From the sequence record MZ501087: 47,731 bases of DNA. One strand, given 5' to 3'. The DNA is from Escherichia phage JulesPiccard. The number at the start of each line of letters is the position of its first letter. The first letter of the stretch is position 1. Shown one piece after another: positions 14,371 to 47,380 of this stretch. A model generated the notes under the pieces. The model did not search any database, was not told the DNA's origin, and worked only from the letters and a program-made list of their open reading frames with translations. The translations under genes and the position numbers were made by a program.

Positions 14371-14745
14371 ATGAAGGCTATTTTTAAAGGATCTGCTGGT
14401 AGTGAATTCCTGGTTAAGCGCAACTTTACAGTTGGCAAGGAGTATGATCTGGAAGATGCCAAATTCGGTTTTTACATAACTCAGGATAATCAAGGCAAAA
14501 GCTTGATTTTTCAGAATGGAGTTGATTACACATTTGATTTAGTTGTTGCTGATAGCTTTATCAAGAGCACTGTATGCGAAGATTCAGGCAATGAGGTGGT
14601 AAAGCGCAATGAGAACAAGATGGTCTACCGAATGAATGGTGTAGATGTGACTTGTGACTACTTTAGCGAAAAGCTGTTAGAGGTTGAGTTACTTAAAGCT
14701 AAAGGCGTTTCGGTATTTATCGACTTCGAAGTTAGTTTTGAATAG
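14371..14745 (+). CDS. hypothetical protein, cargo gene (paralog of 2248..2625)
   Basis: RBS GAGAGGAGG; own promoter element at 14298 and terminator at 14765; C-terminal IDFEVSFE. Confidence 0.6.
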   Translation: MKAIFKGSAGSEFLVKRNFTVGKEYDLEDAKFGFYITQDNQGKSLIFQNGVDYTFDLVVADSFIKSTVCEDSGNEVVKRNENKMVYRMNGVDVTCDYFSEKLLEVELLKAKGVSVFIDFEVSFE

Positions 14746-22133: not shown

Positions 22134-22238
22134 TTAGAAACCGTTAAAATTAGAAGCCAGCATCAGAACCCAAACCAAGAAACCAGTTACAGCAGTGCCG
22201 GCGACCAGGGAGATTGAGTTGTTGATTAAGTTAGTCAT
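22134..22238 (-). CDS. small hydrophobic peptide (34 aa), co-operonic with lipoprotein
   Basis: MTNLINNSISLVAGTAVTGFLVWVLMLASNFNGF; below ORF-track threshold; promoter element upstream on minus strand. Confidence 0.35.
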   Translation of the reverse strand: MTNLINNSISLVAGTAVTGFLVWVLMLASNFNGF

Positions 22239-22277
22239 TTTGTACCCCTCATTAAGTTGTTTCGTTTCGATGGAGTA

Positions 22278-22320
22278 ATAGTATCGCATCCTTGCGAGCA
22301 GTGTTTAGCAATTCGTGCTA
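22278..22320 (-). promoter_or_regulatory. conserved promoter/operator element (drives lipoprotein operon)
   Basis: minus strand TAGCACGAATTGCTAAAC-N-TACTAT-TACTCCATCGAAACGAAAC. Confidence 0.55.
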
Positions 22321-31607: not shown

Positions 31608-31647
31608 CACTAATTGCTAAAGAGATTTCGCAGGGATGCGATATAGT
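31605..31647 (+). promoter_or_regulatory. conserved promoter/operator element
   Basis: TAGCACTAATTGCTAAAG-N-TATAGT-TACTCCATCGAAACGAAAC. Confidence 0.55.
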
Positions 31648-31683
31648 TACTCCATCGAAACGAAACACAGAGAGAGAAACAAA

Positions 31684-31878
31684 ATGGCTACTATCTTTAC
31701 TGGTAAAATCTACGAATCACGCAAGACTGGTTATGAATATGAATTAGTAATCACCGCTGAGGGTTATGTTCTTGACGATGGTGAGGGTTATGCTTTCGAA
31801 GTAAGCCCAACTTACAAGGATGATTTGGAGACTGTTAAAAACGCATTTGGCGAAAAATTTGATGAGGTATCAGAATGA
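31684..31878 (+). CDS. hypothetical protein
   Basis: ATG after conserved leader and RBS GAGAGAGAAAC; promoter element at 31605. Confidence 0.45.
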   Translation: MATIFTGKIYESRKTGYEYELVITAEGYVLDDGEGYAFEVSPTYKDDLETVKNAFGEKFDEVSE

Positions 31879-34442: not shown

Positions 34443-34619
34443 ATGACTAAGATGATTTATTGCACCAAGAACAACTCCAAGACTCTGCCGTTTACTGTCA
34501 ACCAGCCGTACAATGCGGAGTACCAGGGTGATGGATATTTCAAGATTTACGGCGATGACATGACGTGGATTTTAGCGCCGATTGATGGTTCGCTGGTTGA
34601 ATTTATTATCGCTGACTAG
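34443..34619 (+). CDS. hypothetical protein (58 aa)
   Basis: ATG after conserved leader; promoter element 34359; terminator follows. Confidence 0.35.
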   Translation: MTKMIYCTKNNSKTLPFTVNQPYNAEYQGDGYFKIYGDDMTWILAPIDGSLVEFIIAD

Positions 34620-36258: not shown

Positions 36259-37842
36259 TCACCCCAGCAATCGTGGATTAATGTAAACTTTATCACCAAT
36301 CAGGCACGTGTAGTTTTTCTCATCAAGCATTGGCAGCAGGTGATCTTTAATCTTAGTCATCACTCCAGCCTGAGCTTCGAATGGTTTGACCTTACGAGCA
36401 GCTTCATATAGAGAACGAACGCCTACTACGCCTTTCCCGTTCCTGCCTTGTTTAATCAGAATATCAATCAGCTTATTCATCTCGGCATTGTCTCCAGCGT
36501 GACCAGCGGCGTTGGCAGATGACAGATAAGTCTTGCTAAGTTCCTGGAACATAATTACAGCCTCCTGCATTGTGTCCAACTCAATCTCCCTGGACTTCTG
36601 TGGACTCCCGCCGTTAGGGTTGAACCAGTTGCGAATAGTGTGAAGAACCGCAGCGATTCTGATAGCCTGCTTATCGAACTTGCCTAACGCACCGCGCAAC
36701 ATTGTGTGTGAATACTTCCCGCCGTCCGCGAGGTGAGGCTCCATTTCCTGACGCGCTCGGTTGAGATATTTCATTGCTGAGTTGCTCACTGTCAACTTAA
36801 CATCTTGCTCATTCATGATTTCGTGAACCAGTCGGAAGTAATCAGCCTTTAGTCCACCATCAATTGGCTCGTATGTTGATTCACCATTTTCATCAACGAA
36901 TACACGCTCGCCCAGGAATGACTTTTCACGTACAAGCAGGAAACGTTCCGACACACCAATACCACGCGCACCAGCATTCATGATCGCGTTTATTGTTTCA
37001 TCCTGCGCAATTACTGAGATGCAACCCATAGCAAAGAAACTCATGTTGTTCTCTGCATTCGCGCGAGCGATAGATACGTGCCCACCATCCCATGCTTTAA
37101 GAACAAGTTCGCTGTTCGTTTTCTTAGAGCCATCACCATAGGTCATGCCAAGCAGTGAGTTAACACTCGTTGCCTCATCCGAGATAACCGCGAAGTTACC
37201 CTGGCGGTTGTTTATTCGTGCCAGGCCTTCAGGTGTGGTGTCTGATACCGGGAATACGATATCGCACAACTTCTCCAGTTTTTCCTCTAGCTCCTCCTTT
37301 TCCTCAAATAGGGAGGCCATCTCTGAAGGAGATTTTTCCTGCTTCATCTCTTTGGATAATGCGGATAGTTTTGCCATAATCTTTTTGCGCTCACGCTTGC
37401 GAACTTCATTCAGTCGCTCGGTCTCAGCAATCATTGGAGCAATCGAAAGTGAGTTGATGGCTGATTTACCAGTTGATGGCGGCTGACTGGTCACGACGTA
37501 AAGCGAAGTCGGTTGCTGAGTTCCATGATACTCGACAGTAAAGCGGCCCAGCATCGCAGCAGAAATACACCCCAGGAAGTGCATATAGGCTGAAGACTCT
37601 GGGAACTGAACGGAGCGGGCAATGTTGGCAGAAAGTTTACCAACAACATCAATATCATTACCGAGTGAGATTACGGGGTACTTGTCATTAGCGGAATCAA
37701 TCTCTACGGGCGCCTTCCAGAACGATTGAGACTGTCGATAGCCATTGGCATTAATAGCGACTCGCAGGGGTGGGAGGTTGTCTGCGGCAGCAATTGCCAT
37801 AACCTGTTCAACAGATAGCTTATCTTCGTTGAAATCAAACAT
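36259..37842 (-). CDS. large hypothetical protein (Walker-A-like STGKS motif)
   Basis: 527 aa; QPPSTGKSA; own promoter element on minus strand at 37873..37915; N- and C-termini duplicated in 40684..41223. Confidence 0.55.
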   Translation of the reverse strand: MFDFNEDKLSVEQVMAIAAADNLPPLRVAINANGYRQSQSFWKAPVEIDSANDKYPVISLGNDIDVVGKLSANIARSVQFPESSAYMHFLGCISAAMLGRFTVEYHGTQQPTSLYVVTSQPPSTGKSAINSLSIAPMIAETERLNEVRKRERKKIMAKLSALSKEMKQEKSPSEMASLFEEKEELEEKLEKLCDIVFPVSDTTPEGLARINNRQGNFAVISDEATSVNSLLGMTYGDGSKKTNSELVLKAWDGGHVSIARANAENNMSFFAMGCISVIAQDETINAIMNAGARGIGVSERFLLVREKSFLGERVFVDENGESTYEPIDGGLKADYFRLVHEIMNEQDVKLTVSNSAMKYLNRARQEMEPHLADGGKYSHTMLRGALGKFDKQAIRIAAVLHTIRNWFNPNGGSPQKSREIELDTMQEAVIMFQELSKTYLSSANAAGHAGDNAEMNKLIDILIKQGRNGKGVVGVRSLYEAARKVKPFEAQAGVMTKIKDHLLPMLDEKNYTCLIGDKVYINPRLLG

Positions 37843-40162: not shown

Positions 40163-40684
40163 ATGTCGAATCGAATTCAGCCAGTAAGCCTTGGTGATGT
40201 TATCCGCTACATGGCCAAGCAGGCACTTAAGACTGACAACCGAACTTTTCATGTCCCAATCCATCTTATAGCTCGCCAGGTGTACGGACTAACGTCTGAT
40301 GATATGGGCCGAATCAGCACTGAAGATCTCGAGACTGGTGGCAAATACAGCTTGGCAAAGTTGAAAGCGTCATATGTCTCTAACACAGTTGCAAGGATGC
40401 CGGAGATTCAGGAGGCGAACGTTCGGGCCAAGCTATCAATCAAGGACGGAGACTTCGGGGATGATGTTGATGTTCGATGCGCATACATCACCTTGGTAGA
40501 TGGGGCAATTCAGAAAGGAAAGAGAGTGAAGGCCAACAACCAGGTTGCAGAGAAGGCGGTGAACGACTTTAAGGATAGAATCCTCAAGCTAATGCCATCC
40601 GTGACTGAGTTTGAAGGAGGCGAGATCACTGGAGCCATTAAGGCAATTAAGATGTACCAGGAAATGATTAAGGAGACAAAATAA
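40163..40684 (+). CDS. hypothetical protein
   Basis: RBS AGGAG; sigma70-like promoter TTGATA-N16-TATTAT upstream. Confidence 0.5.
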   Translation: MSNRIQPVSLGDVIRYMAKQALKTDNRTFHVPIHLIARQVYGLTSDDMGRISTEDLETGGKYSLAKLKASYVSNTVARMPEIQEANVRAKLSIKDGDFGDDVDVRCAYITLVDGAIQKGKRVKANNQVAEKAVNDFKDRILKLMPSVTEFEGGEITGAIKAIKMYQEMIKETK

Positions 40685-41223
40685 TGGGGATGTTTGATTT
40701 TACCGAAGAGAAGCTGACAGATGAGCAGATTATGCAGATTGCTGCGCGGGATGGACTTCCTCCGCTACGAGTTGCAATCAATGCCAATGGATATCGCCAG
40801 TCTCAATCATTCTGGTGTAGTGTTGAGGAGTTGCTCTGCGCAAAGCTCGACAGCAAGTCGGGCGTAGTTGTGCTAAAAATTCACGACCAGAGCAGGAACG
40901 GTAAAGGGGTTGTAGGAATTAGATCAACATATGAAGCGCTGAGAAAGGTCAAGCCATTTGCCGGACTCAACGGAGTCATGCATGACCTGAAAAATAACAT
41001 CCTGCCATCGCTACAGGACGTAGGAATCATCTGCCTCATTGGAGATAAAATTTACGTGCATCCATACATCATTGGCATGCATGCGATAGAAGTTGAAGAG
41101 TGGTGCGACCCATGTCCTGCTGTTGAGCAAGATACTAGACTACCATACCACTTGCGTTATAGTGAGGAAGAGGTGGAGATGGCGATGGACTTGTATCGTA
41201 GATGGAATGCTGTTGGGAAATGA
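40684..41223 (+). CDS. truncated paralog of the 527-aa protein (N- and C-terminal segments only)
   Basis: N-terminus MFDFTEEKLTDEQIMQIAARDGLPPLRVAINANGYRQSQSFW and C-terminus RNGKGVVGIRSTYEALRKVKPF..CLIGDKIYV match ends of 36259..37842. Confidence 0.55.
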   Translation: MGMFDFTEEKLTDEQIMQIAARDGLPPLRVAINANGYRQSQSFWCSVEELLCAKLDSKSGVVVLKIHDQSRNGKGVVGIRSTYEALRKVKPFAGLNGVMHDLKNNILPSLQDVGIICLIGDKIYVHPYIIGMHAIEVEEWCDPCPAVEQDTRLPYHLRYSEEEVEMAMDLYRRWNAVGK

Positions 41224-41243
41224 AGCCAATCCTGAACGGTGAA

Positions 41244-41286
41244 TAGCAATAATTGCTAAACAATTGATCGGGTAGTCAGCTATGAT
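41244..41286 (+). promoter_or_regulatory. conserved promoter/operator element
   Basis: TAGCAATAATTGCTAAAC ... TATGAT-TACCCCATC. Confidence 0.55.
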
Positions 41287-41310
41287 TACCCCATCTACAA
41301 CAAAGAGGAA

Positions 41311-41520
41311 ATGAAGATGGAAAATATTCGTATTGAAGATGTTTACGTTGACCAGGCTGAGGTCAGCATCACAAAAAGAGATCGTGGTGCCGTTGTATCT
41401 CTGGATTTCGACCCTGATGAATACGGAGATTGTCAGACGCTGATGCAATACAGTCCAGACCAGGCGCGCAAGCTGGCGGCGGCATTAATTCTGGCGGCTG
41501 ATGAGGCAGAGAAGCAATGA
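41311..41520 (+). CDS. hypothetical small protein (paralog pair member)
   Basis: C-terminus ARKLAAALILAADEAEKQ resembles next gene. Confidence 0.45.
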   Translation: MKMENIRIEDVYVDQAEVSITKRDRGAVVSLDFDPDEYGDCQTLMQYSPDQARKLAAALILAADEAEKQ

Positions 41521-41631
41521 GTAGTCATCACAATGAGCACGTAATGCAGCTCTACCGACATAATCTCAAGTCACTTGGTCGGTTGGGTAGGTAAAATAAC
41601 GGGCCTTTACAGGCCCATTTAGAGGTGTTAT

Positions 41632-41817
41632 ATGAGCAACGGAATCATTATAAAATCTGGCGACAGGATTCTTATTGAGGCGCGCAGAAATGTCGTTGAA
41701 CTTGAAACAGAAAATGACTATGCGTTCATGACTCCAGAGCAGGCGCTTGAACTTGCAGCCGCCCTTGTATCTGCGGCGAATGAAGCCAACAACCAGCTCG
41801 GGAGCGCCCAGGCATGA
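41632..41817 (+). CDS. hypothetical small protein (paralog pair member)
   Basis: C-terminus ALELAAALVSAANEANNQ; RBS AGAGGTG. Confidence 0.45.
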   Translation: MSNGIIIKSGDRILIEARRNVVELETENDYAFMTPEQALELAAALVSAANEANNQLGSAQA

Positions 41818-42038
41818 AGAAGCATCGCATTGTGATGATCAGGACTGAGACGGCGTTCGGCGATCCGTGTCACAGTACTGTCGATGCGTTCGTGAGTGAG
41901 CTTGCGGCTGGTCCAGGGAAAACCGTCCAAGATGACAAATACGGCGTCGCAGATGAATTGACGAAGAAAAGCAAATTCACTTTCGGTAGCAATTTCGGTG
42001 AAGGCAAAGCGCTTACCATGTCAACTGCGAAAATGTAG
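41814..42038 (+). CDS. hypothetical protein, ends at in-frame TAG
   Basis: 74 aa; same frame as downstream Met-less ORF. Confidence 0.4.
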   Translation: MKKHRIVMIRTETAFGDPCHSTVDAFVSELAAGPGKTVQDDKYGVADELTKKSKFTFGSNFGEGKALTMSTAKM

Positions 42039-42077
42039 CCACGAATCGGCGGTTACGGATATGTCAATCGTCACATA

Positions 42078-42377
42078 TTGGCGGTTAGCGAATGCGAATC
42101 GGCACGCGATCGCAAGGTGGCTGTTTGCTATTGCGTTGGTGGCAATGAGTTCATCAATGGTTGCGAATGCGAGTATGAAGTTGATGAGCGCGAGGCGGGG
42201 TGTGAGCCGCGCATTATTCATATCGTACAAGATGCATTCGTCTCTGACTTAAAAGGTGATCACCGCTGGGAATCTGTTAAGTTTGGAAAGCTTAACATTG
42301 ATGGAAAAGATCTTGGCGATGCATACGCAATCATAAATCCTGATGGCGGCGTAGTGGCTCAGTTCTACATCAAATAG
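42078..42377 (+). CDS. Cys-rich hypothetical protein (no ATG; TTG start or readthrough product)
   Basis: open frame from 42039 with no Met; CYC..C.C motifs; stop TAG forms promoter element 42375. Confidence 0.35.
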   Translation: MAVSECESARDRKVAVCYCVGGNEFINGCECEYEVDEREAGCEPRIIHIVQDAFVSDLKGDHRWESVKFGKLNIDGKDLGDAYAIINPDGGVVAQFYIK

Positions 42378-42417
42378 CACGATTTGTTAAAAGGGGATTC
42401 ATCCTGACTGGTATAAT
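42375..42417 (+). promoter_or_regulatory. conserved promoter/operator element
   Basis: TAGCACGATTTGTTAAA-N22-TATAAT. Confidence 0.55.
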
Positions 42418-42450
42418 CCCCACATCAACCACACGAATGGAAGTTAACAA

Positions 42451-42990
42451 ATGAATCAGATGTACACCATGATTAAGCAACACCTGAACACCGAGGCAAT
42501 CAACAAGCCAGTCTACGTGTTTGACTACGACGGCACGCTGTCGGACGGATCGCATCGCTTGCATAAGTTGCCGACAAAGGATTTACACCTCACTGAGTCA
42601 TGGTCTGAATTCAATCGACTGTCAGAATATGATGAACCTATCGAATCAACCATTCAGGTGATGAATAGCCTGTACGACTCTGGCGCATACATCATCATCC
42701 TAACCGGGCGGTCAGACGAGGTGTGTGAAATTTCGACTCAGTGGCTTCATGATGCTAAAGCAAAATATAACGTAATGGTCATGCGCCAGGCTGATGACAA
42801 CAGAAAGGATACAATCATCAAAGAGGAGTTCTTGCGCTACATTGGCTTGCATCGAATTACGGCAGCATTCGATGATAGCCCTAACGTGGTTGCGCACTTC
42901 CGAAGCCTGGGCATCACTACCTATCAGGTTTGCGACTATGGCGATAAGCTACACGCTGGAGTCGGATCGCATGGCGTTCATCATAAGTGA
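42451..42990 (+). CDS. HAD-family 3'-phosphatase (T4 Pnk phosphatase-domain-like)
   Basis: FDYDGTL (DxDGT), IILTGR, RKDTIIKEEF, AFDDSPNVV collinear with the T4 polynucleotide kinase C-terminal domain as recalled. Confidence 0.65.
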   Translation: MNQMYTMIKQHLNTEAINKPVYVFDYDGTLSDGSHRLHKLPTKDLHLTESWSEFNRLSEYDEPIESTIQVMNSLYDSGAYIIILTGRSDEVCEISTQWLHDAKAKYNVMVMRQADDNRKDTIIKEEFLRYIGLHRITAAFDDSPNVVAHFRSLGITTYQVCDYGDKLHAGVGSHGVHHK

Positions 42991-43110
42991 CGATATACGA
43001 ACATAAATTCAGTAGCAGGGGTATTGATATGCTCCTGCACTATGTAGACGAAAAATACGCAAATCTCATGCTTAAGACGCATGGTGGCACAATAACGAGG
43101 ATTAACATCA

Positions 43111-43743
43111 ATGGCTAAAATAATCATTCTTAATGGACCGGCAGGTATTGGAAAGGACACTATCGGAAACGCGCTTGCAGCAGATTACAATTGCAACCTG
43201 GTAAGTTTCAAGCGTCCTATGTTTGATATCGCATCCTCAATACTAGGCGCTTTAGCCTTCAGCAAATTCATCACCGCTTATAATGACCGAGATCAGAAAG
43301 AGCGTCCTCAGGAATTTCTTGGTGGAAAGACATGCCGTGAGTTCATGATCTGGATTAGCGAATCAGTAGTTAAGCCGCTTTTAGGCGATAGGCAGTTCGG
43401 TAAGTTGATGAGCGAACATATCCAGATGCGTGACGAAGGCTTTACGTTTGTTTGCACTGATGGCGGTTTCCCTGATGAGGTTATTCAGCTAGTGGAAGAT
43501 GGACACGATGTTACCCTTGTACGCTTATTTATGGATGGTAAGACATTCGCTGGCGATAGTCGTGATTACATCCGAATCAAGGAATCGCACTTCCCTGATT
43601 ACCATGCCTACCAGGAGCATGATGTTCATCTAGTCAATGGTGATATTTATGGCGGTGTTCTGTCGGTAGCTGATGCTTGCGGTATTGGCTCACCAGTTCC
43701 AGAGGTTGATGTTTACGAGTGGGAAGATGGATTACCCTGGTAA
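43111..43743 (+). CDS. P-loop nucleotide kinase (dNMP-kinase-like)
   Basis: N-terminal IILNGPAGIGKDT P-loop at residue ~7. Confidence 0.5.
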   Translation: MAKIIILNGPAGIGKDTIGNALAADYNCNLVSFKRPMFDIASSILGALAFSKFITAYNDRDQKERPQEFLGGKTCREFMIWISESVVKPLLGDRQFGKLMSEHIQMRDEGFTFVCTDGGFPDEVIQLVEDGHDVTLVRLFMDGKTFAGDSRDYIRIKESHFPDYHAYQEHDVHLVNGDIYGGVLSVADACGIGSPVPEVDVYEWEDGLPW

Positions 43744-43744
43744 A

Positions 43745-43787
43745 TAGCACGAATCGCCAAAGCCGCTCCGGCGGGTTTTGTTATAGT
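43745..43787 (+). promoter_or_regulatory. conserved promoter/operator element with embedded GC hairpin
   Basis: TAGCACGAATCGCCAAAGCCGCTCCGGCGGGTTTTGTTATAGT. Confidence 0.5.
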
Positions 43788-43819
43788 TAGTTCACACCAA
43801 ACGAGAGGAAGTAGAAGAA

Positions 43820-44011
43820 ATGATTACAATTAACCTGTCAGAAGAAATGGCTGCTGACCTTATTGATTCACTAAGCCTGGTTAAAATTCGATACGGGACT
43901 TACAACAGAAGCGAATCAATAAAGGAAGTGGTAAAGCAAGTTAAACAGCAGGTCGAAGCGGCCAAAATCGAATTGCAGAACACCCCATACGATTTTAATA
44001 AAGGTGAGTAA
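43820..44011 (+). CDS. hypothetical small protein (tandem paralog 1)
   Basis: MITINLSEEMAADL. Confidence 0.45.
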   Translation: MITINLSEEMAADLIDSLSLVKIRYGTYNRSESIKEVVKQVKQQVEAAKIELQNTPYDFNKGE

Positions 44012-44012
44012 G

Positions 44013-44231
44013 ATGATTACAATTAACCTGTCAGACAAGCAAGCAGCAGAACTTAAATCCATGTTATCAATCTTTGAGAAGCCAAATGACCGAGCAATTG
44101 CAAAAGAGGTTATCTCTCAGATCAACAACCAGCAATTCGACGTCAGTGACTTCGAGTCATCACGTCAATATGAAGCGATGAGTGTCAACGCTGCATACCT
44201 GGTTAACTGGGATAAGGCGACTAAGCAATGA
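44013..44231 (+). CDS. hypothetical small protein (tandem paralog 2)
   Basis: MITINLSDKQAAEL; RBS AAGGTGAG. Confidence 0.45.
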   Translation: MITINLSDKQAAELKSMLSIFEKPNDRAIAKEVISQINNQQFDVSDFESSRQYEAMSVNAAYLVNWDKATKQ

Positions 44232-44365
44232 TTTACGTTCACACTTACTACACTGCAAAGTTTAATAGCGTGAAGAATGTTAGTGTTCACGAAAGCTACG
44301 AGAGCGCAAAAGCTCAATGGTTGGTTCTCGGCGGTGATATTAATTCATATAGAGTCGATGAATAG
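44228..44365 (+). CDS. hypothetical protein (45 aa)
   Basis: ATGA overlap; stop TAG forms promoter element 44363. Confidence 0.3.
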   Translation: MIYVHTYYTAKFNSVKNVSVHESYESAKAQWLVLGGDINSYRVDE

Positions 44366-44405
44366 CAAGAATTGCTAAAACAGCATTGGGGTAATTTGTT
44401 ATAGT
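44363..44405 (+). promoter_or_regulatory. conserved promoter/operator element
   Basis: TAGCAAGAATTGCTAAAA ... TATAGT-TACCCCATAGAAACGAATGAGG. Confidence 0.55.
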
Positions 44406-44435
44406 TACCCCATAGAAACGAATGAGGAAGAAGAG

Positions 44436-44648
44436 ATGAAAATTGAAATTATCGACGTGGATTACCAGGTGGACCAGGAAATTCCTACTCTGCGCGACTG
44501 TGGTTTCCGGGTTGGAGATATAGTAGAGGTGATTGGTTACTACGATGATGGCGACATTTCAATCCCTGCAATCCGTGAGACTGAGTTCGCCAATATCGGA
44601 GATGAAATCAGTATTTGCGAGCATGAATACAGGGGGGTAGAGAAATGA
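44436..44648 (+). CDS. hypothetical protein
   Basis: RBS GAGGAAG; 70 aa acidic. Confidence 0.45.
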   Translation: MKIEIIDVDYQVDQEIPTLRDCGFRVGDIVEVIGYYDDGDISIPAIRETEFANIGDEISICEHEYRGVEK

Positions 44649-44827
44649 TTAAGTTCGAGCAAAGCGAACCTAAGCTACAGGCTAACCACTTCGATGGCTA
44701 CTCAACATTCATCATTGCCCAGGCGTACGGAATGCGTGAAGACCCACAGGTCCACACAATCCACTTAACCGAAGAGCAGGCTAGAGAGTTGGCTTACGAA
44801 ATTCTAGAGCAATTGAATAAGATTTAA
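44645..44827 (+). CDS. hypothetical protein
   Basis: 60 aa, ATGA overlap. Confidence 0.4.
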   Translation: MIKFEQSEPKLQANHFDGYSTFIIAQAYGMREDPQVHTIHLTEEQARELAYEILEQLNKI

Positions 44828-44876
44828 CGCGCCTAAAACGCACTATGACGAAAGATAATTTAAGTAAGGTGATTCT

Positions 44877-45162
44877 ATGATTAAAGCTGTTTTTGTTGCT
44901 GAGGATGACGATTATCTAGGCCTAAAGACACATGACGTGATCTATGTTGAACCATTAAAAAATGGTGATGGCTATATCTACACTGATAAATTTGGCGTGC
45001 GTCTTTTTATTGAGCGATGGGAAATTGAGGAGATTAGTGGTGAGTAACGAAAGCCCCGTAGAGTGGTGCAAGAGAATGCAGGACGAGGCCAAGACGAGCG
45101 AAGAGGCAATGGCTTACTACGAGCTTGCGAAAATGTGGATGGAGCGGGAGAAGAAGGAATGA
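44877..45162 (+). CDS. hypothetical protein
   Basis: 95-aa ORF (ATG 44877) extending the tracked 44962 ORF. Confidence 0.4.
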
Positions 45163-45302
45163 GCTTCACTGAATATGTTATCGCATGTGAGAGAATTGTG
45201 TTTGACATGAAAACCTTTCACTGGTTCATCATTAAGGATTTAATCAAGCCTTATAAGCAAGGCGTTACGCCAGAACAGTTTGTTAAGTCATTCTATAAAT
45301 AA
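45159..45302 (+). CDS. hypothetical protein (47 aa)
   Basis: ATGA overlap; MSFTEYVIACERIVF... Confidence 0.3.
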   Translation: MSFTEYVIACERIVFDMKTFHWFIIKDLIKPYKQGVTPEQFVKSFYK

Positions 45303-45328
45303 TCTTATCAGAAAGAGAGAGAAACAAA

Positions 45329-45526
45329 ATGTGGATCAACATTAAAGAAGAGATGCCTGGCAGCGAGGATGTTTTGGTTTATTGCTCAGACACAAGAGAG
45401 CAGATGGTTGGGTTCCACAAGGGGAGAGGTCTTTTTCAGTTCTTTTTCATGAATGGGGTGGAGGGAGTTTGCAAACCAACGCATTGGATGCCGCTACCAG
45501 AAGGTCCAGATAGCACGAATTGCTAA
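45329..45526 (+). CDS. hypothetical protein
   Basis: RBS AGAGAGAGAAAC; 65 aa. Confidence 0.45.
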   Translation: MWINIKEEMPGSEDVLVYCSDTREQMVGFHKGRGLFQFFFMNGVEGVCKPTHWMPLPEGPDSTNC

Positions 45527-45553
45527 ACACGCTCGCCACGGATGGCATATAAT
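45511..45553 (+). promoter_or_regulatory. conserved promoter/operator element
   Basis: TAGCACGAATTGCTAAAC-N-TATAAT-TACCCCATCAACACAACGAGAG. Confidence 0.55.
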
Positions 45554-45583
45554 TACCCCATCAACACAACGAGAGATTGAGAG

Positions 45584-45823
45584 ATGTTTGGATTAAATGA
45601 AGCGATGTTTAATGCTGTAAAGCGCCAGGCTAAAAAGCTCAACGATAAGTATGAGACACTAAGCAAACTGGACCGCAAGAATGACAAGCTAGTTGCTGGA
45701 GTTATAACTGAGATTTGGCAGCCCGTTTCTACGGTAATCAGCAGAGATCGCTTTGTGTGGGTAGCTGGTTACTTGCGAGGCCGGGTTGGTCACGACGAGA
45801 ATGGGAATAGCCTTTATGAGTAA
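45584..45823 (+). CDS. hypothetical protein
   Basis: RBS GAGAGATTGAGAG; promoter element 45511. Confidence 0.45.
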   Translation: MFGLNEAMFNAVKRQAKKLNDKYETLSKLDRKNDKLVAGVITEIWQPVSTVISRDRFVWVAGYLRGRVGHDENGNSLYE

Positions 45824-45923
45824 GTTTATTGATTGTGTTATTTACGCGTGGTGCTTGGCGCTGGCTTCAGCCTCGGTTATGTTAATAATTGCTGCGATTA
45901 TGATGATGGGTGGGTATGTATGA
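45816..45923 (+). CDS. possible 35-aa hydrophobic micro-protein
   Basis: MSKFIDCVIYAWCLALASASVMLIIAAIMMMGGYV; overlaps neighbours by start/stop. Confidence 0.25.
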   Translation: MSKFIDCVIYAWCLALASASVMLIIAAIMMMGGYV

Positions 45924-46108
45924 GTAATTGCAACAAGCACCACTATTACTACGCATACGAGTCGAAATTGGAGAAGTCTGACATTGATGGGATTAGATAT
46001 GGATGGGCTGACGCAACGGCGCCATGCATCTTCGTAGGAATGAAAATGGCATTCTACGTTTGCAGTAAGTGCCACAACATACTTATCACCGAGAGGCTGA
46101 GTAAATGA
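45920..46108 (+). CDS. small zinc-ribbon-like protein (paralog 1)
   Basis: CNKHHY...CSKCHN motif pair. Confidence 0.45.
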   Translation: MSNCNKHHYYYAYESKLEKSDIDGIRYGWADATAPCIFVGMKMAFYVCSKCHNILITERLSK

Positions 46109-46169
46109 GTGAACTAACAATCTGGTTTATCGCAGGGCTGGTTACTTGGGCTTACTTTATGGAGGCAGC

Positions 46170-46406
46170 ATGAGAACATTGAGGCAGATTTTAAACGGAT
46201 GCAAGAAGCATCATTACACTTACTTTCGTGACATTAAATGGTTCGAGGATGCTAATCGTTTAGATGGCTACAAGACAAAGTTAATATGCAAGAAGTGCCA
46301 CCATGTTGAGAACAGTAAGGTAGATATGATGATTTGCCGTAGCACACTCGACGAAGTTCATTATGCAAAGGCCAGAAGGCTCAAAAAACTAGTTGCCAGA
46401 CCGTAA
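46170..46406 (+). CDS. small zinc-ribbon-like protein (paralog 2)
   Basis: CKKHHY...CKKCHH motif pair; RBS GGAGG. Confidence 0.45.
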   Translation: MRTLRQILNGCKKHHYTYFRDIKWFEDANRLDGYKTKLICKKCHHVENSKVDMMICRSTLDEVHYAKARRLKKLVARP

Positions 46407-46816: not shown

Positions 46817-46894
46817 GCTCTGCTAGCTCAATTGGATAGCAGCAACGACCTTCTAAGTCGTAGGTTACTGGTTCGAATCCAGTGCGGAGCGCCA
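46817..46894 (+). tRNA. tRNA-Arg (anticodon UCU), CCA encoded
   Basis: 7-bp acceptor stem GCTCTGC/GCGGAGC (one G-U), anticodon stem ACGAC/GTCGT with loop CTTCTAA, T-arm ACTGG-TTCGAAT-CCAGT, D-loop with GG, 3' GCCA; D-stem has only 3 pairs. Confidence 0.75.
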
Positions 46895-47317: not shown

Positions 47318-47342
47318 AGCCCTCGCTTGAGGGCTTTTTTTC
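47318..47342 (+). terminator. intrinsic terminator
   Basis: AGCCCTC-GCTTG-AGGGCT then TTTTTT. Confidence 0.7.
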
Positions 47343-47351
47343 GCCCGCATG

Positions 47352-47380
47352 TTGACAACAATATATAGGTGCATTAGTAT
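47352..47380 (+). promoter_or_regulatory. sigma70-like promoter (TTGACA-N17-TAGTAT)
   Basis: consensus -35 with 17-bp spacer. Confidence 0.5.

Follow-up and report, generated by a model that had tools for sequence, protein, structure and literature searches.

The three neighbouring pairs of small genes that we describe here, in the genome of Escherichia phage JulesPiccard, are old and diverged relatives belonging to three phage-restricted families of unknown function, families that are essentially confined to the Drexlerviridae. We regard as probable a joint account in which six real genes, kept by purifying selection, lie in transcription units of their own, are chained through overlapping codons and come and go among phages as cassettes, the pairs themselves being older than the phage lineage that carries them. 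Paired small genes of this sort are commonplace in the accessory regions of phages, and they indicate neither recent duplication nor unusually fast evolution.

Three pairs of genes in the accessory block

The window that we analysed, 47,731 nucleotides in length (record MZ501087), is the complete genome of JulesPiccard (Bas03, Drexlerviridae), a T1-like virulent coliphage whose block of accessory small genes has the replication module on one side and the terminase on the other. A sequence-only reading had recognized in this block several tandem pairs of small paralogous early genes, between positions 41,311 and 46,406, and had taken them as products of tandem duplication with rapidly evolving host-interaction functions. 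The six reading frames are where that reading placed them, with ATG starts and in-frame stops, and they are identical to the GenBank CDSs bas03_0066 and bas03_0067 (A1 and A2), bas03_0073 and bas03_0074 (B1 and B2), and bas03_0084 and bas03_0085 (C1 and C2), all of them annotated as hypothetical proteins. The motifs that it quoted are all present as well: the C-terminal helices of the A proteins, the MITINLS start of both B proteins and the Cys/His motifs of both C proteins. Within each pair the genes are neighbours in the same orientation, although adjacency is not strict for A, where a Stp gene intervenes, or for C, where a 22-codon ORF does so.

Paralogy was examined through pairwise alignments, with a genome-wide control in which 57 small proteins (1,596 pairs) were compared by Smith-Waterman with shuffling. 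Of all 1,596, the claimed pairs come out first, second and third (p = 4.6e-7, 6.5e-6 and 7.4e-5); p = 7.8e-5 is attained by two genes that are not adjacent, which leaves the C pair at the edge of the noise by score alone. Family HMMs for A and B, controlled with decoys and built without the JulesPiccard copies, gave reciprocal matches, so that the claim of paralogy can be upheld firmly for these two pairs and as probable for C, where profile support is weak.

Pair A and the Stp gene between its members

A1 (41311..41520, plus strand) encodes 69 amino acids, with a strand-rich N-terminus and a conserved Ala-rich C-terminal helix, and is a full-length member of the phrog_13316 family (E=1.9e-14, residues 3-69) with homologues in 74 phage records. 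A2 (41632..41817, plus strand; 61 aa) is a shortened protein of the A1 type, which matches phrog_13316 only at residues 30-57, in the region of the C-terminal helix (E=6e-4). With respect to that family it is a very rare short variant, found in four metagenomic clusters and, at the DNA level, in phage PH1062; its homologues are four proteins of 61 aa with 67-95% identity. The next gene begins with an ATG at 41814 that overlaps the stop codon of A2.

The BLASTP match between A1 and A2 (E=3e-7, 13/22 identical) is limited to the C-terminal helices, SPDQARKLAAALILAADEAE and TPEQALELAAALVSAANEAN, respectively, and the two proteins can be aligned collinearly over their full length. The A1 family HMM detects A2 at 8.7e-6 and the A2 family HMM detects A1 at 1.5e-5, with the next decoy at 0.2-1, and these comparisons firmly support A1 and A2 as robust paralogues. 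Against Pfam DUF6907 (PF21848), A1 scores 19 bits and A2 13.4 bits, both under the 26-bit gathering cutoff, so neither is a DUF6907 member. The significance of the A1/A2 similarity comes mainly from one compositionally biased, Ala-rich helix of about 23 residues.

Between A1 and A2 we found an unannotated Stp homologue (41517..41594, plus strand) of 25 codons, MSSHHNEHVMQLYRHNLKSLGRLGR, whose ATG overlaps the A1 stop codon. It covers positions 1-25 of the 26-residue model of Pfam PF08133 with 42.6 bits (cutoff 25) and matches phrog_6763 with E=9e-14; tblastn searches with it matched 709 phage records, the T4-likes among them at 68% identity. In comparison with Stp of phage T4, the anticodon nuclease activator and EcoprrI inhibitor, the JulesPiccard peptide is a full-length member of the family. 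According to PMC1484252 and PMC2610378, Stp inhibits the restriction enzyme EcoprrI. This ORF stands outside the pairs; it matters as functional context, since it links a counter-defence peptide to A1 by translational coupling. A scan for terminator-like structures located a GC-rich hairpin, GGGCC-TTTACA-GGCCC (41598..41619, no strand assigned), directly 3′ of stp and 5′ of A2. Both stp and the hairpin are kept at 88-89% in XT34 and P818, and the order A1→stp→A2, with stp at the same position, occurs also in L013, a divergent metagenomic phage.

Pair B, a short and a long form of DUF7180

B1 (43820..44011, plus strand; 63 aa) is the short form and B2 (44013..44231, plus strand; 72 aa) the long and common form of DUF7180 (PF23805, phrog_16063), a family with no known function. 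Both pass the Pfam gathering cutoff of 27, B1 with 30.0 bits over residues 1-46 and B2 with 78.3 bits over residues 1-71, and both have the invariant MITINLS N-terminus and the helix pattern downstream of it. B1 was found in 12 phage records and B2 in 98; most phages have a single copy, while the short B1 and the long B2 occur together in JulesPiccard, JeanPiccard and OzMSK/Msk. The two proteins match each other by BLASTP (E=1e-6, 18/44 identical) and by family HMMs in both directions (B2 to B1, 4.9e-10; B1 to B2, 4.7e-4), from which we firmly take them to be robust paralogues. Their genes have 23 identical nucleotides at the 5′ ends, a stretch that varies at synonymous sites across phages, so that its conservation is at the protein level.

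Pair C, putative zinc-binding proteins in a coupled gene chain

C1 and C2 are contained in a translationally coupled chain whose first gene (45584..45823, plus strand; 79 aa; phrog_303, E=1.2e-25) precedes the C slot in every related locus. Inserted between it and C1 is bas03_0083 (45816..45923, plus strand), an annotated CDS of 35 aa and hydrophobic character, whose start, ATGAGT, overlaps the stop codon of the preceding gene, and which is missing from ZL19, FP, SU57, AugustePiccard and JeanPiccard in an alignment of the junctions. Then comes C1 (45920..46108, plus strand; 62 aa), and between it and C2 (46170..46406, plus strand; 78 aa) lies an unannotated, hydrophobic micro-ORF of 22 codons (46105..46173, plus strand; MSELTIWFIAGLVTWAYFMEAA), which overlaps the C1 stop and C2 start codons and is kept in the five phages just named with a dN/dS of 0.12-0.16.

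The C1 protein contains C4-x2-H7 … C48-x2-C51 (C-N-K-H-H-Y…C-S-K-C-H), and the C2 protein C11-x2-H14 … C40-x2-C43 (C-K-K-H-H-Y…C-K-K-C-H) together with a basic C-terminal helix. Among C1 relatives (7 phage records) K6, H7, Y9, Y11, C48 and C51 never vary, and phage ES has His in place of C4; among C2 relatives (28 phage records, and 12 clusters at 50% identity among 1.84 billion proteins) the invariant residues are K13, H14, C40 and C43, C11 is kept in >90%, and proteins of the TR1 type have a His close to that position. Across both families four predicted Cys/His ligands are conserved, arranged as two knuckles, with the common signature [C/H]-x(1,2)-H-x-[Y/F]…C-x-x-C, a pattern that probably defines an uncatalogued family of Cys/His proteins with a single putative zinc site.

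Small zinc-ribbon and zinc-knuckle proteins likewise have two short Cys/His knuckles, here [C/H]-x(1,2)-H and C-x-x-C, which in C1 and C2 are 25-45 residues apart with an aromatic, strand-like sequence between them, and a low-confidence model of C2 places strands around the second knuckle. The first knuckle, however, reads C-x-x-H or H-x-H rather than C-x-x-C, and both the fold and the metal binding are putative. Neither protein gave a significant match to a zinc-ribbon family in Pfam, PHROG or PDB, and the score of C2 against Pfam Stc1 (PF12898; 18.2 bits, E=0.0038) is under the gathering cutoff of 24.8. The AlphaFold2 models, both uninformative at their low confidence, are beta-rich for C2 (pLDDT 54) and helical for C1 (pLDDT 57), and at these low pLDDT values Foldseek returned no match with E <0.001.

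Promoter-like repeats ahead of each pair

Each pair has a short transcription unit to itself, headed by one copy of a promoter-like repeat that is present throughout the genome. The copy heading the A mini-operon (41240..41310, plus strand) is composed of the palindrome TAGCAataatTGCTA, TAAACA, N18, TATGAT and a leader with a Shine-Dalgarno (SD) sequence; it is a diverged copy, detected by nhmmer with a profile of the 7-copy repeat (E=1.1e-8) and by a consensus scan at 41257-41286. Further copies, likewise detected by nhmmer, head the B mini-operon (43741..43819, plus strand; E=2.7e-13), where the model ends at the B1 ATG, and the C mini-operon (45502..45583, plus strand; E=1.6e-19), where an alignment of copies also supports the element and the sequence is TAAACA-N18-TATAAT. 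Copies end at the start codons 41311, 42451, 43820, 44436 and 45584, and the palindrome TAGCA-N5-TGCTA occurs in around 16 promoter copies genome-wide. Elements of the same type also precede genes of the structural region (2166, 9903, 14289 and 23944), and the repeat is therefore no marker of an “early” class. Within the units, the genes are chained via overlapping stop and start codons.

Age, turnover and origin of the pairs

Within the pairs, amino-acid identity is 28-59%, in the aligned parts only, and the best local DNA alignments span 17-64 nt with low scores, the 5′ ends of the B genes being the only notable stretch. Each copy is far nearer to its counterparts in other phages (67-94% amino-acid identity) than to its own neighbour. 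The two marks of a recent tandem duplicate, meaningful DNA similarity and copies that are each other's closest relatives, are thus both absent. The six genes are real and under purifying selection, with dN/dS values of 0.05-0.32 overall (A1, 0.13-0.26; A2, 0.25; B1, 0.11-0.15; B2, 0.05-0.16; C1, about 0.31; C2, 0.20-0.24), figures that do not bear out the earlier description of these functions as rapidly evolving, at least at the sequence level. The fast component is instead the turnover of presence and absence among phages. Phages of the C1-only, C2-only and neither types have conserved flanks in common, and an 18-nt relic of C2 persists in the C1-only phages ZL19, FP and SU57 (in FP, 16/18 identical, a value equalled in 0/20,000 shuffles), which makes the C1…C2 arrangement ancestral and later differentially lost. 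Copy number varies by insertion or deletion of whole-gene cassettes at the overlapping-codon boundaries between genes, as seen in the ATGAGT junctions and the C2 deletion relic.

A second member of each family could also have been acquired horizontally beside a resident one, with no duplication within the genome. The sequenced phages with C1-type genes and those with C2-type genes form sets that do not overlap, and the cassettes are bordered by short shared ATGAGT junctions; B1 lies where other phages have their single DUF7180 gene, with the same upstream context, single DUF7180 proteins of 52 aa (L013, p111 and P818 types) seem to stand midway between B1 and B2, and A1 is followed by stp, hairpin and A2 in the manner of an insert. 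The relic, however, indicates that C2 was lost in the C1-only phages and that co-occurrence is ancestral in that clade, and the A and B data are as compatible with ancient duplication as with ancient stacking. We consider this route rather unlikely.

It is unlikely, too, that some pairs are not homologous at all, with convergent zinc-binding knuckles in C1 and C2 and nothing but a generic N-capped, Ala-rich helix in A1 and A2. Narrow C-family HMMs made from close relatives do not cross-detect significantly (E=0.25), hhalign is unstable at Neff ~2, and the low-confidence models of the two proteins differ; the A match is restricted to those ~23 residues by both BLASTP and HMM, and a similar helix start, [ST]-x-E-Q-A-x-E-L-A, exists in the unrelated protein of 44645-44827. 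Yet this last protein escapes the HMMs of both A and B (E=0.8-1.5), and A1 and A2, besides being collinear, both touch DUF6907 and phrog_13316. For C, BLASTP aligns C1 and C2 with E=1e-3 (15/54 identical, long gaps), and the pattern K-H-x-[YF]-x(15,50)-C-x-x-C is found in only 2/779 six-frame ORFs of the genome and exactly once, in the same slot, in 11/12 related loci; the invariant columns of both families coincide (K-H, Y, C-x-x-C), and a broader C2 profile scores C1-type proteins (0.0023 and 0.065) ahead of everything else in a set of 2,213 decoy ORFs, the next decoy being at 0.89. On these sequence comparisons, C1 and C2 are probably paralogues.

Finally, it is highly improbable that the copies arose in situ by recent tandem duplication and then diverged very rapidly in an arms race with the host: they are indeed neighbours with a common orientation, in a region that is highly variable among related phages, and B1 and B2 do keep 23 identical nucleotides, but the dN/dS values reveal no elevated rate, the A and B pairs are present in other, divergent phages, the relic makes the C pair older than the split of the C1-only phages, DNA similarity does not extend past the B stretch, itself variable at synonymous sites, and the alignments indicate grouping by type across phages. 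The tandem duplication that had been proposed for these genes, if it is taken to mean a recent local event, is not supported; the three pairs are old and predate the JulesPiccard lineage.

Possible functions and comparison with known systems

The other component of the sequence-only reading, a role in host interaction, is plausible from gene context, since the block also harbours the Stp homologue, a PNKP-type phosphatase (HAD_PNKP) and a dNMP kinase. PADLOC gave no match for these genes, the families have no relatives among solved structures, and we found no literature on families A, B or C. Tentatively, the proteins, of about 60-80 aa, would act as non-enzymatic binders or modulators, divergence in target or specificity would explain why both members of a pair are kept, and, given the neighbouring Stp, PNKP phosphatase and dNMP kinase, host takeover or counter-defence soon after infection would be their most likely setting. 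A more specific proposal, which we find unlikely, sees in each pair specificity variants of a small inhibitor that, in the manner of Stp, serves counter-defence or host takeover, each paralogue neutralising a different host factor or allele; if true, cassette gain and loss across the Drexlerviridae would tune host range. Still more speculatively, B1 and B2 could be ribbon-helix-helix-like (RHH) binders of the TAGCA-N5-TGCTA promoter palindrome, with a MITINLS strand, helix, turn and helix; searches returned no RHH Pfam family at E up to 1, and no RHH chain among the PDB phmmer and hmmsearch results at E up to 10. In the C chain, the repeating unit may be a two-gene module made of a hydrophobic micro-peptide and a zinc-binding protein.

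Hyperplastic or “moron” accessory regions are familiar from other phages, such as the early small-gene regions of T4 and T5 or the nin region of lambda, where tiny coupled ORFs of unknown function are densely packed, cassettes vary in presence and absence, and diverged paralogues occasionally occur. By analogy, the JulesPiccard block would resemble these regions, a likeness that concerns their organisation only.

Genomic setting of the paired genes

The window opens with terS and terL, and Braunvirinae coliphages (Drexlerviridae, T1-like) match it at 80-90% in patches. The six genes considered here sit in a plus-strand block of small genes (~40.1-47.7 kb) that extends from the minus-strand helicase region to the terminase: bas03_0066 and bas03_0067 (A1, 41311-41520, and A2, 41632-41817), bas03_0073 and bas03_0074 (B1, 43820-44011, and B2, 44013-44231), and bas03_0084 and bas03_0085 (C1, 45920-46108, at 100% identity, and C2, 46170-46406). 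All of them are annotated as CDS, each as a “hypothetical protein”. Roughly half of the proteins encoded by T1-like phages, small ORFs for the most part, lack a known function (PMC13164509).

The block also encodes a 179-aa protein (40684-41223, +), whose residues 69-131 share 57% identity (E=3e-21) with the last 63 residues of a 527-aa helicase-like protein (36259-37842, -), with 76% identity over 126 nt at the DNA level and matches to phrog_7327 and phrog_2373; apparently the C-terminal domain of the helicase was duplicated and is carried in a small protein of its own. Near-identical copies of these coliphage genes occur in records MG065688.1 (“Campylobacter phage A110b”) and PP134917.1 (“Pseudomonas phage PsgS01F”), the latter equal in length to a coliphage record, and the host assignments of both look doubtful.

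Paralogy of the three pairs

The sequence-only reading had proposed three tandem pairs of small early paralogues, and the six ORFs and their motifs are present as it gave them. Its pairwise relationships are borne out by alignment for A (BLASTP E=3e-7, 13/22 identical residues in the C-terminal helix) and B (E=1e-6, 18/44), and more weakly for C (E=1e-3, 15/54, gapped). As a genome-wide control, Smith-Waterman alignment with shuffling was applied to the 57 proteins of up to 130 aa, where the claimed pairs took ranks 1, 2 and 3 among 1,596 (p = 4.6e-7, 6.5e-6 and 7.4e-5). On score alone C stands at the edge of the noise, because a non-adjacent pair, 22134-22289(-) and 31636-31878(+), reaches p = 7.8e-5 in the same control. 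The similarity of this last pair (50% over 26 aa, N-terminal) was rejected as paralogy, since a promoter-like DNA repeat extends into the start of each ORF, and at least one of these starts may be miscalled. A fourth pair, 44436-44648 and 44877-45047, was likewise discarded: both have weak SH3-like matches, with an insignificant pairwise score.

Family HMMs were then built with homologues from other phages and metagenomes, leaving out the window's own copies, and its 779 six-frame ORFs served as decoys. The A1 family detected A2 at 8.7e-6 and the A2 family A1 at 1.5e-5, with the next decoy at 0.2-1, and both proteins match phrog_13316 (1.9e-14 and 6e-4, respectively). By HMM and BLAST the A1/A2 match is restricted to the Ala-rich helix; in a multiple alignment the two are collinear over their full length (IRIEDV..GD with IIIKSGD, NVVSLDFDPD with NVVELETEND, LMQYSPDQA with AFMTPEQA), so that A2 looks like a shortened A1-type protein. 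By tblastn A2 at first looked like an orphan, because the low-complexity filter masks the Ala-rich helix; the filter also cut the A1 matches at residue 51. Searches with phmmer and blastn resolved both cases, recovering for A2 four 61-aa metagenomic proteins (phmmer) and, at the DNA level, a homologue in phage PH1062 (blastn). The protein at 44645-44827, ending in HLTEEQARELAYEILEQL, was dismissed as a third A-type member (E=0.8-1.5 with the A and B family HMMs), as was an insignificant RelJ/YefM match of A in the PDB (E ~0.7).

For B, both members pass the gathering threshold of DUF7180 (PF23805; 30.0 bits for B1 and 78.3 for B2 against 27), and against the same 779 decoys the B2-family HMM finds B1 at 4.9e-10 and the B1-family HMM finds B2 at 4.7e-4. 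Some of the DUF7180 proteins that occur singly are 52-aa forms, apparently intermediate between B1 and B2.

The case of C depends on a broader profile. Neither protein matches anything in Pfam and PHROG family scans, and narrow C-family HMMs gave no cross-detection (0.25). An exhaustive profile search of 1.84 billion proteins found that the wider C2 family amounts to only 12 clusters at 50% identity. When the broadened C2 profile was run against 2,213 decoy ORFs, C1-type proteins came first (0.0023 for the copy of phage SU57, 0.065 for C1 of the window), followed by a decoy at 0.89. The columns conserved in both families are K-H, an aromatic residue at +2, a Gly ahead of the second knuckle and C-x-x-C. 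Of the 779 window ORFs, 2 contain the pattern K-H-x-[YF]-x(15,50)-C-x-x-C, and 11 of 12 related loci have it exactly once, at the corresponding slot, which speaks for its specificity and, as it was derived post hoc, is no independent test. An hhalign comparison of the C1 and C2 alignments was set aside as unreliable (E=3e-32 to 5e-5 depending on the option, Neff ~2). AlphaFold2 models from shallow alignments are uninterpretable because of their pLDDT (57 for C1, all-helical, and 54 for C2), and Foldseek retrieved nothing below E=0.001 for them in the PDB and BFVD. From these sequence comparisons, C1 and C2 are probably homologous.

Micro-genes within the pairs

The members of each pair had been regarded as adjacent, which fails for A and C, where unannotated micro-genes intervene. 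From one cassette to the next, stop and start codons overlap, and ATGAGT opens each of them. A1 and A2 are 111 nt apart, and this stretch holds an unannotated 25-codon homologue of Stp (41517-41594, +), whose ATG overlaps the A1 stop and which is directly followed by a GC-rich hairpin (41598-41619). The homologue is full length (PF08133, 42.6 bits with a cutoff of 25; phrog_6763, 9e-14) and 68% identical to the copies of T4-like phages. The same A1-stp-A2 arrangement is seen in L013, a divergent metagenomic phage contig (stp at 1533-1610). In both the window and L013, stp and A2 occur together, no stp follows A1 in phages without A2, and stp plus hairpin is present without A2 in phages XT34 and P818. 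The gene upstream of stp in phage TLS, gp04, was considered as a possible A1 and is not A1-like. The factor encoded by T4 is described as inhibiting the type Ic restriction enzyme EcoprrI and as also triggering the PrrC anticodon nuclease, against which phage tRNA repair enzymes act (PMC1484252, PMC2610378). The block studied here encodes a HAD_PNKP phosphatase and a dNMP kinase as well.

In pair C, the 54-nt “spacer” is in fact a hydrophobic ORF of 22 codons (46105-46173, +; MSELTIWFIAGLVTWAYFMEAA, with the pattern MSELTIWFIAGL[IV]TWAYF…), which is unannotated and overlaps both the C1 stop and the C2 start. Across six related phages its changes are mostly synonymous (dN/dS 0.12-0.16). Another hydrophobic ORF, the 35-aa bas03_0083 (45816-45923, +), is inserted ahead of C1 in this phage only. 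Phage FP instead carries a different small hydrophobic ORF, located downstream of its C1-type gene (L003 3802-3918), and tiny membrane-like ORFs alternate with Cys/His genes.

Age of the pairs, gain and loss

The rapid sequence evolution suggested earlier does not fit the dN/dS values of the six genes against their orthologues, all of which lie within 0.05-0.32. A recent tandem duplication is opposed by the lack of useful DNA similarity within the pairs, by their recurrence elsewhere and by a relic of C2. The sole exception in DNA similarity is found in B1 and B2, whose 5′ ends share 23 identical nt, a stretch that differs at synonymous sites across phages, so the conservation of MITINLS is at the protein level. 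Every copy is far nearer its counterpart in other phages than its neighbour; the order A1→A2 is found again in L013, and JeanPiccard and OzMSK/Msk also carry B1 and B2, most phages having a single DUF7180 gene.

The history of the C slot can be read from DNA alignments. Sequenced phages with C1-type (7 records) and C2-type genes (28 records) form sets that do not overlap. What the window has in excess of ZL19, FP and SU57 is exactly C2, and what it has in excess of AugustePiccard and JeanPiccard is exactly the 35-aa hydrophobic ORF plus C1. AugustePiccard has C2 alone and one B gene, ZL19 has C1 alone, and OzMSK lacks both C genes. In place of C2, ZL19 (L001 5178-5195), FP (L003 3968-3985) and SU57 (L004 3234-3251) keep an 18-nt relic, at a site identical in all three, of C2 codons 28-33 (window 46252-46269); in FP 16 of the 18 are identical, and none of 20,000 shuffles was as good. 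Therefore, that clade descends from an ancestor with the arrangement C1…C2, and the relic is direct evidence that C2 was lost by a later deletion. The pairs are old and their fast change is one of presence and absence, with copy number shown to differ through clean gain and loss of cassettes.

A promoter-like repeat

A repeat of ~85 nt, with ~16 genome copies (nhmmer, E below 1e-3), consists of a palindrome TAGCAcgaatTGCTA over a weak -35 (TAAACA), a TATAnT and a conserved SD leader ending at an ATG. Its sites are 2166, 9903, 14289, 22329(-), 23944, 28638(-), 31597, 32440, 34357, 38705(-), 39537(-), 41240, 42370, 43741, 44355 and 45502, and in every copy repeat and downstream gene are co-oriented, making it a candidate common phage promoter and operator. 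Five copies in the block end at the starts of A1 (41311), the PNKP phosphatase (42451), B1 (43820), a 70-aa gene (44436) and a 79-aa gene, the first of the C chain (45584), and the block is therefore a series of mini-operons, with each pair in one of its own. Copies also precede genes of the structural region, so the repeat is no marker of the “early” class claimed for these genes, and literature searches turned up no expression data for T1-like phages. Three ORFs are similar to one another (2128-2625, 14371-14745 and 34443-34619, +; E=1.7e-6 and 0.007). Repeat copies directly precede two of these, and the ORFs may be mobile or duplicated cassettes.

Downstream of C2, a tRNA-Arg with anticodon TCT (46817-46894, +) keeps its position in most related phages. 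Farther on, a strong terminator-like hairpin with a T-run (47318-47335, +) and a promoter-like TTGACA-N17-TAGTAT (47352-47380, +), just ahead of a 78-aa gene and terS, suggest that the accessory block is transcribed as a unit separate from the packaging genes.

Possible roles

Domain scans of the A, B and C proteins detected no enzymatic domain, the PADLOC defence library gave no match, and A, B, C1 and C2 drew chance-level matches alone from the PDB, by sequence as well as by profile, with no solved relative; literature searches on the three families, JulesPiccard and T1-like temporal transcription yielded nothing usable. The best-conserved parts are the terminal helix in A, the invariant strand-like N-terminal MITINLS in B and the four Cys/His positions in C. 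For B, the sequence pattern suggested an RHH-like fold, for which profile matches were none, and an EF-hand helix-loop-helix of calmodulin type for B2 (PDB, E ~0.04) was rejected, as its loop is without the D-x-D-x-D-G…E ligand pattern. Judging by size, conservation pattern and neighbours, the best-supported interpretation sees the products of the paired genes as small binders or modulators from a host-takeover and counter-defence block, with paralogues that would have been kept owing to diverged targets. A host-interaction role of the paired genes, as first proposed, is plausible.

JulesPiccard is part of the BASEL reference collection, which serves the mapping of phage-defence interactions. 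True family membership among its small genes is now sorted out, and the annotation is corrected by an embedded Stp anti-restriction peptide and a conserved micro-ORF. Cheap and concrete candidates for deletion and expression screens are bas03_0066/67, bas03_0073/74, bas03_0083-85 and stp. The novelties are modest: the Stp homologue, the micro-ORF, the C2 deletion relic, an uncatalogued Cys/His family and the promoter-like repeat. No new kind of system is revealed, and small diverged paralogues such as these are ordinary in the accessory regions of phages.
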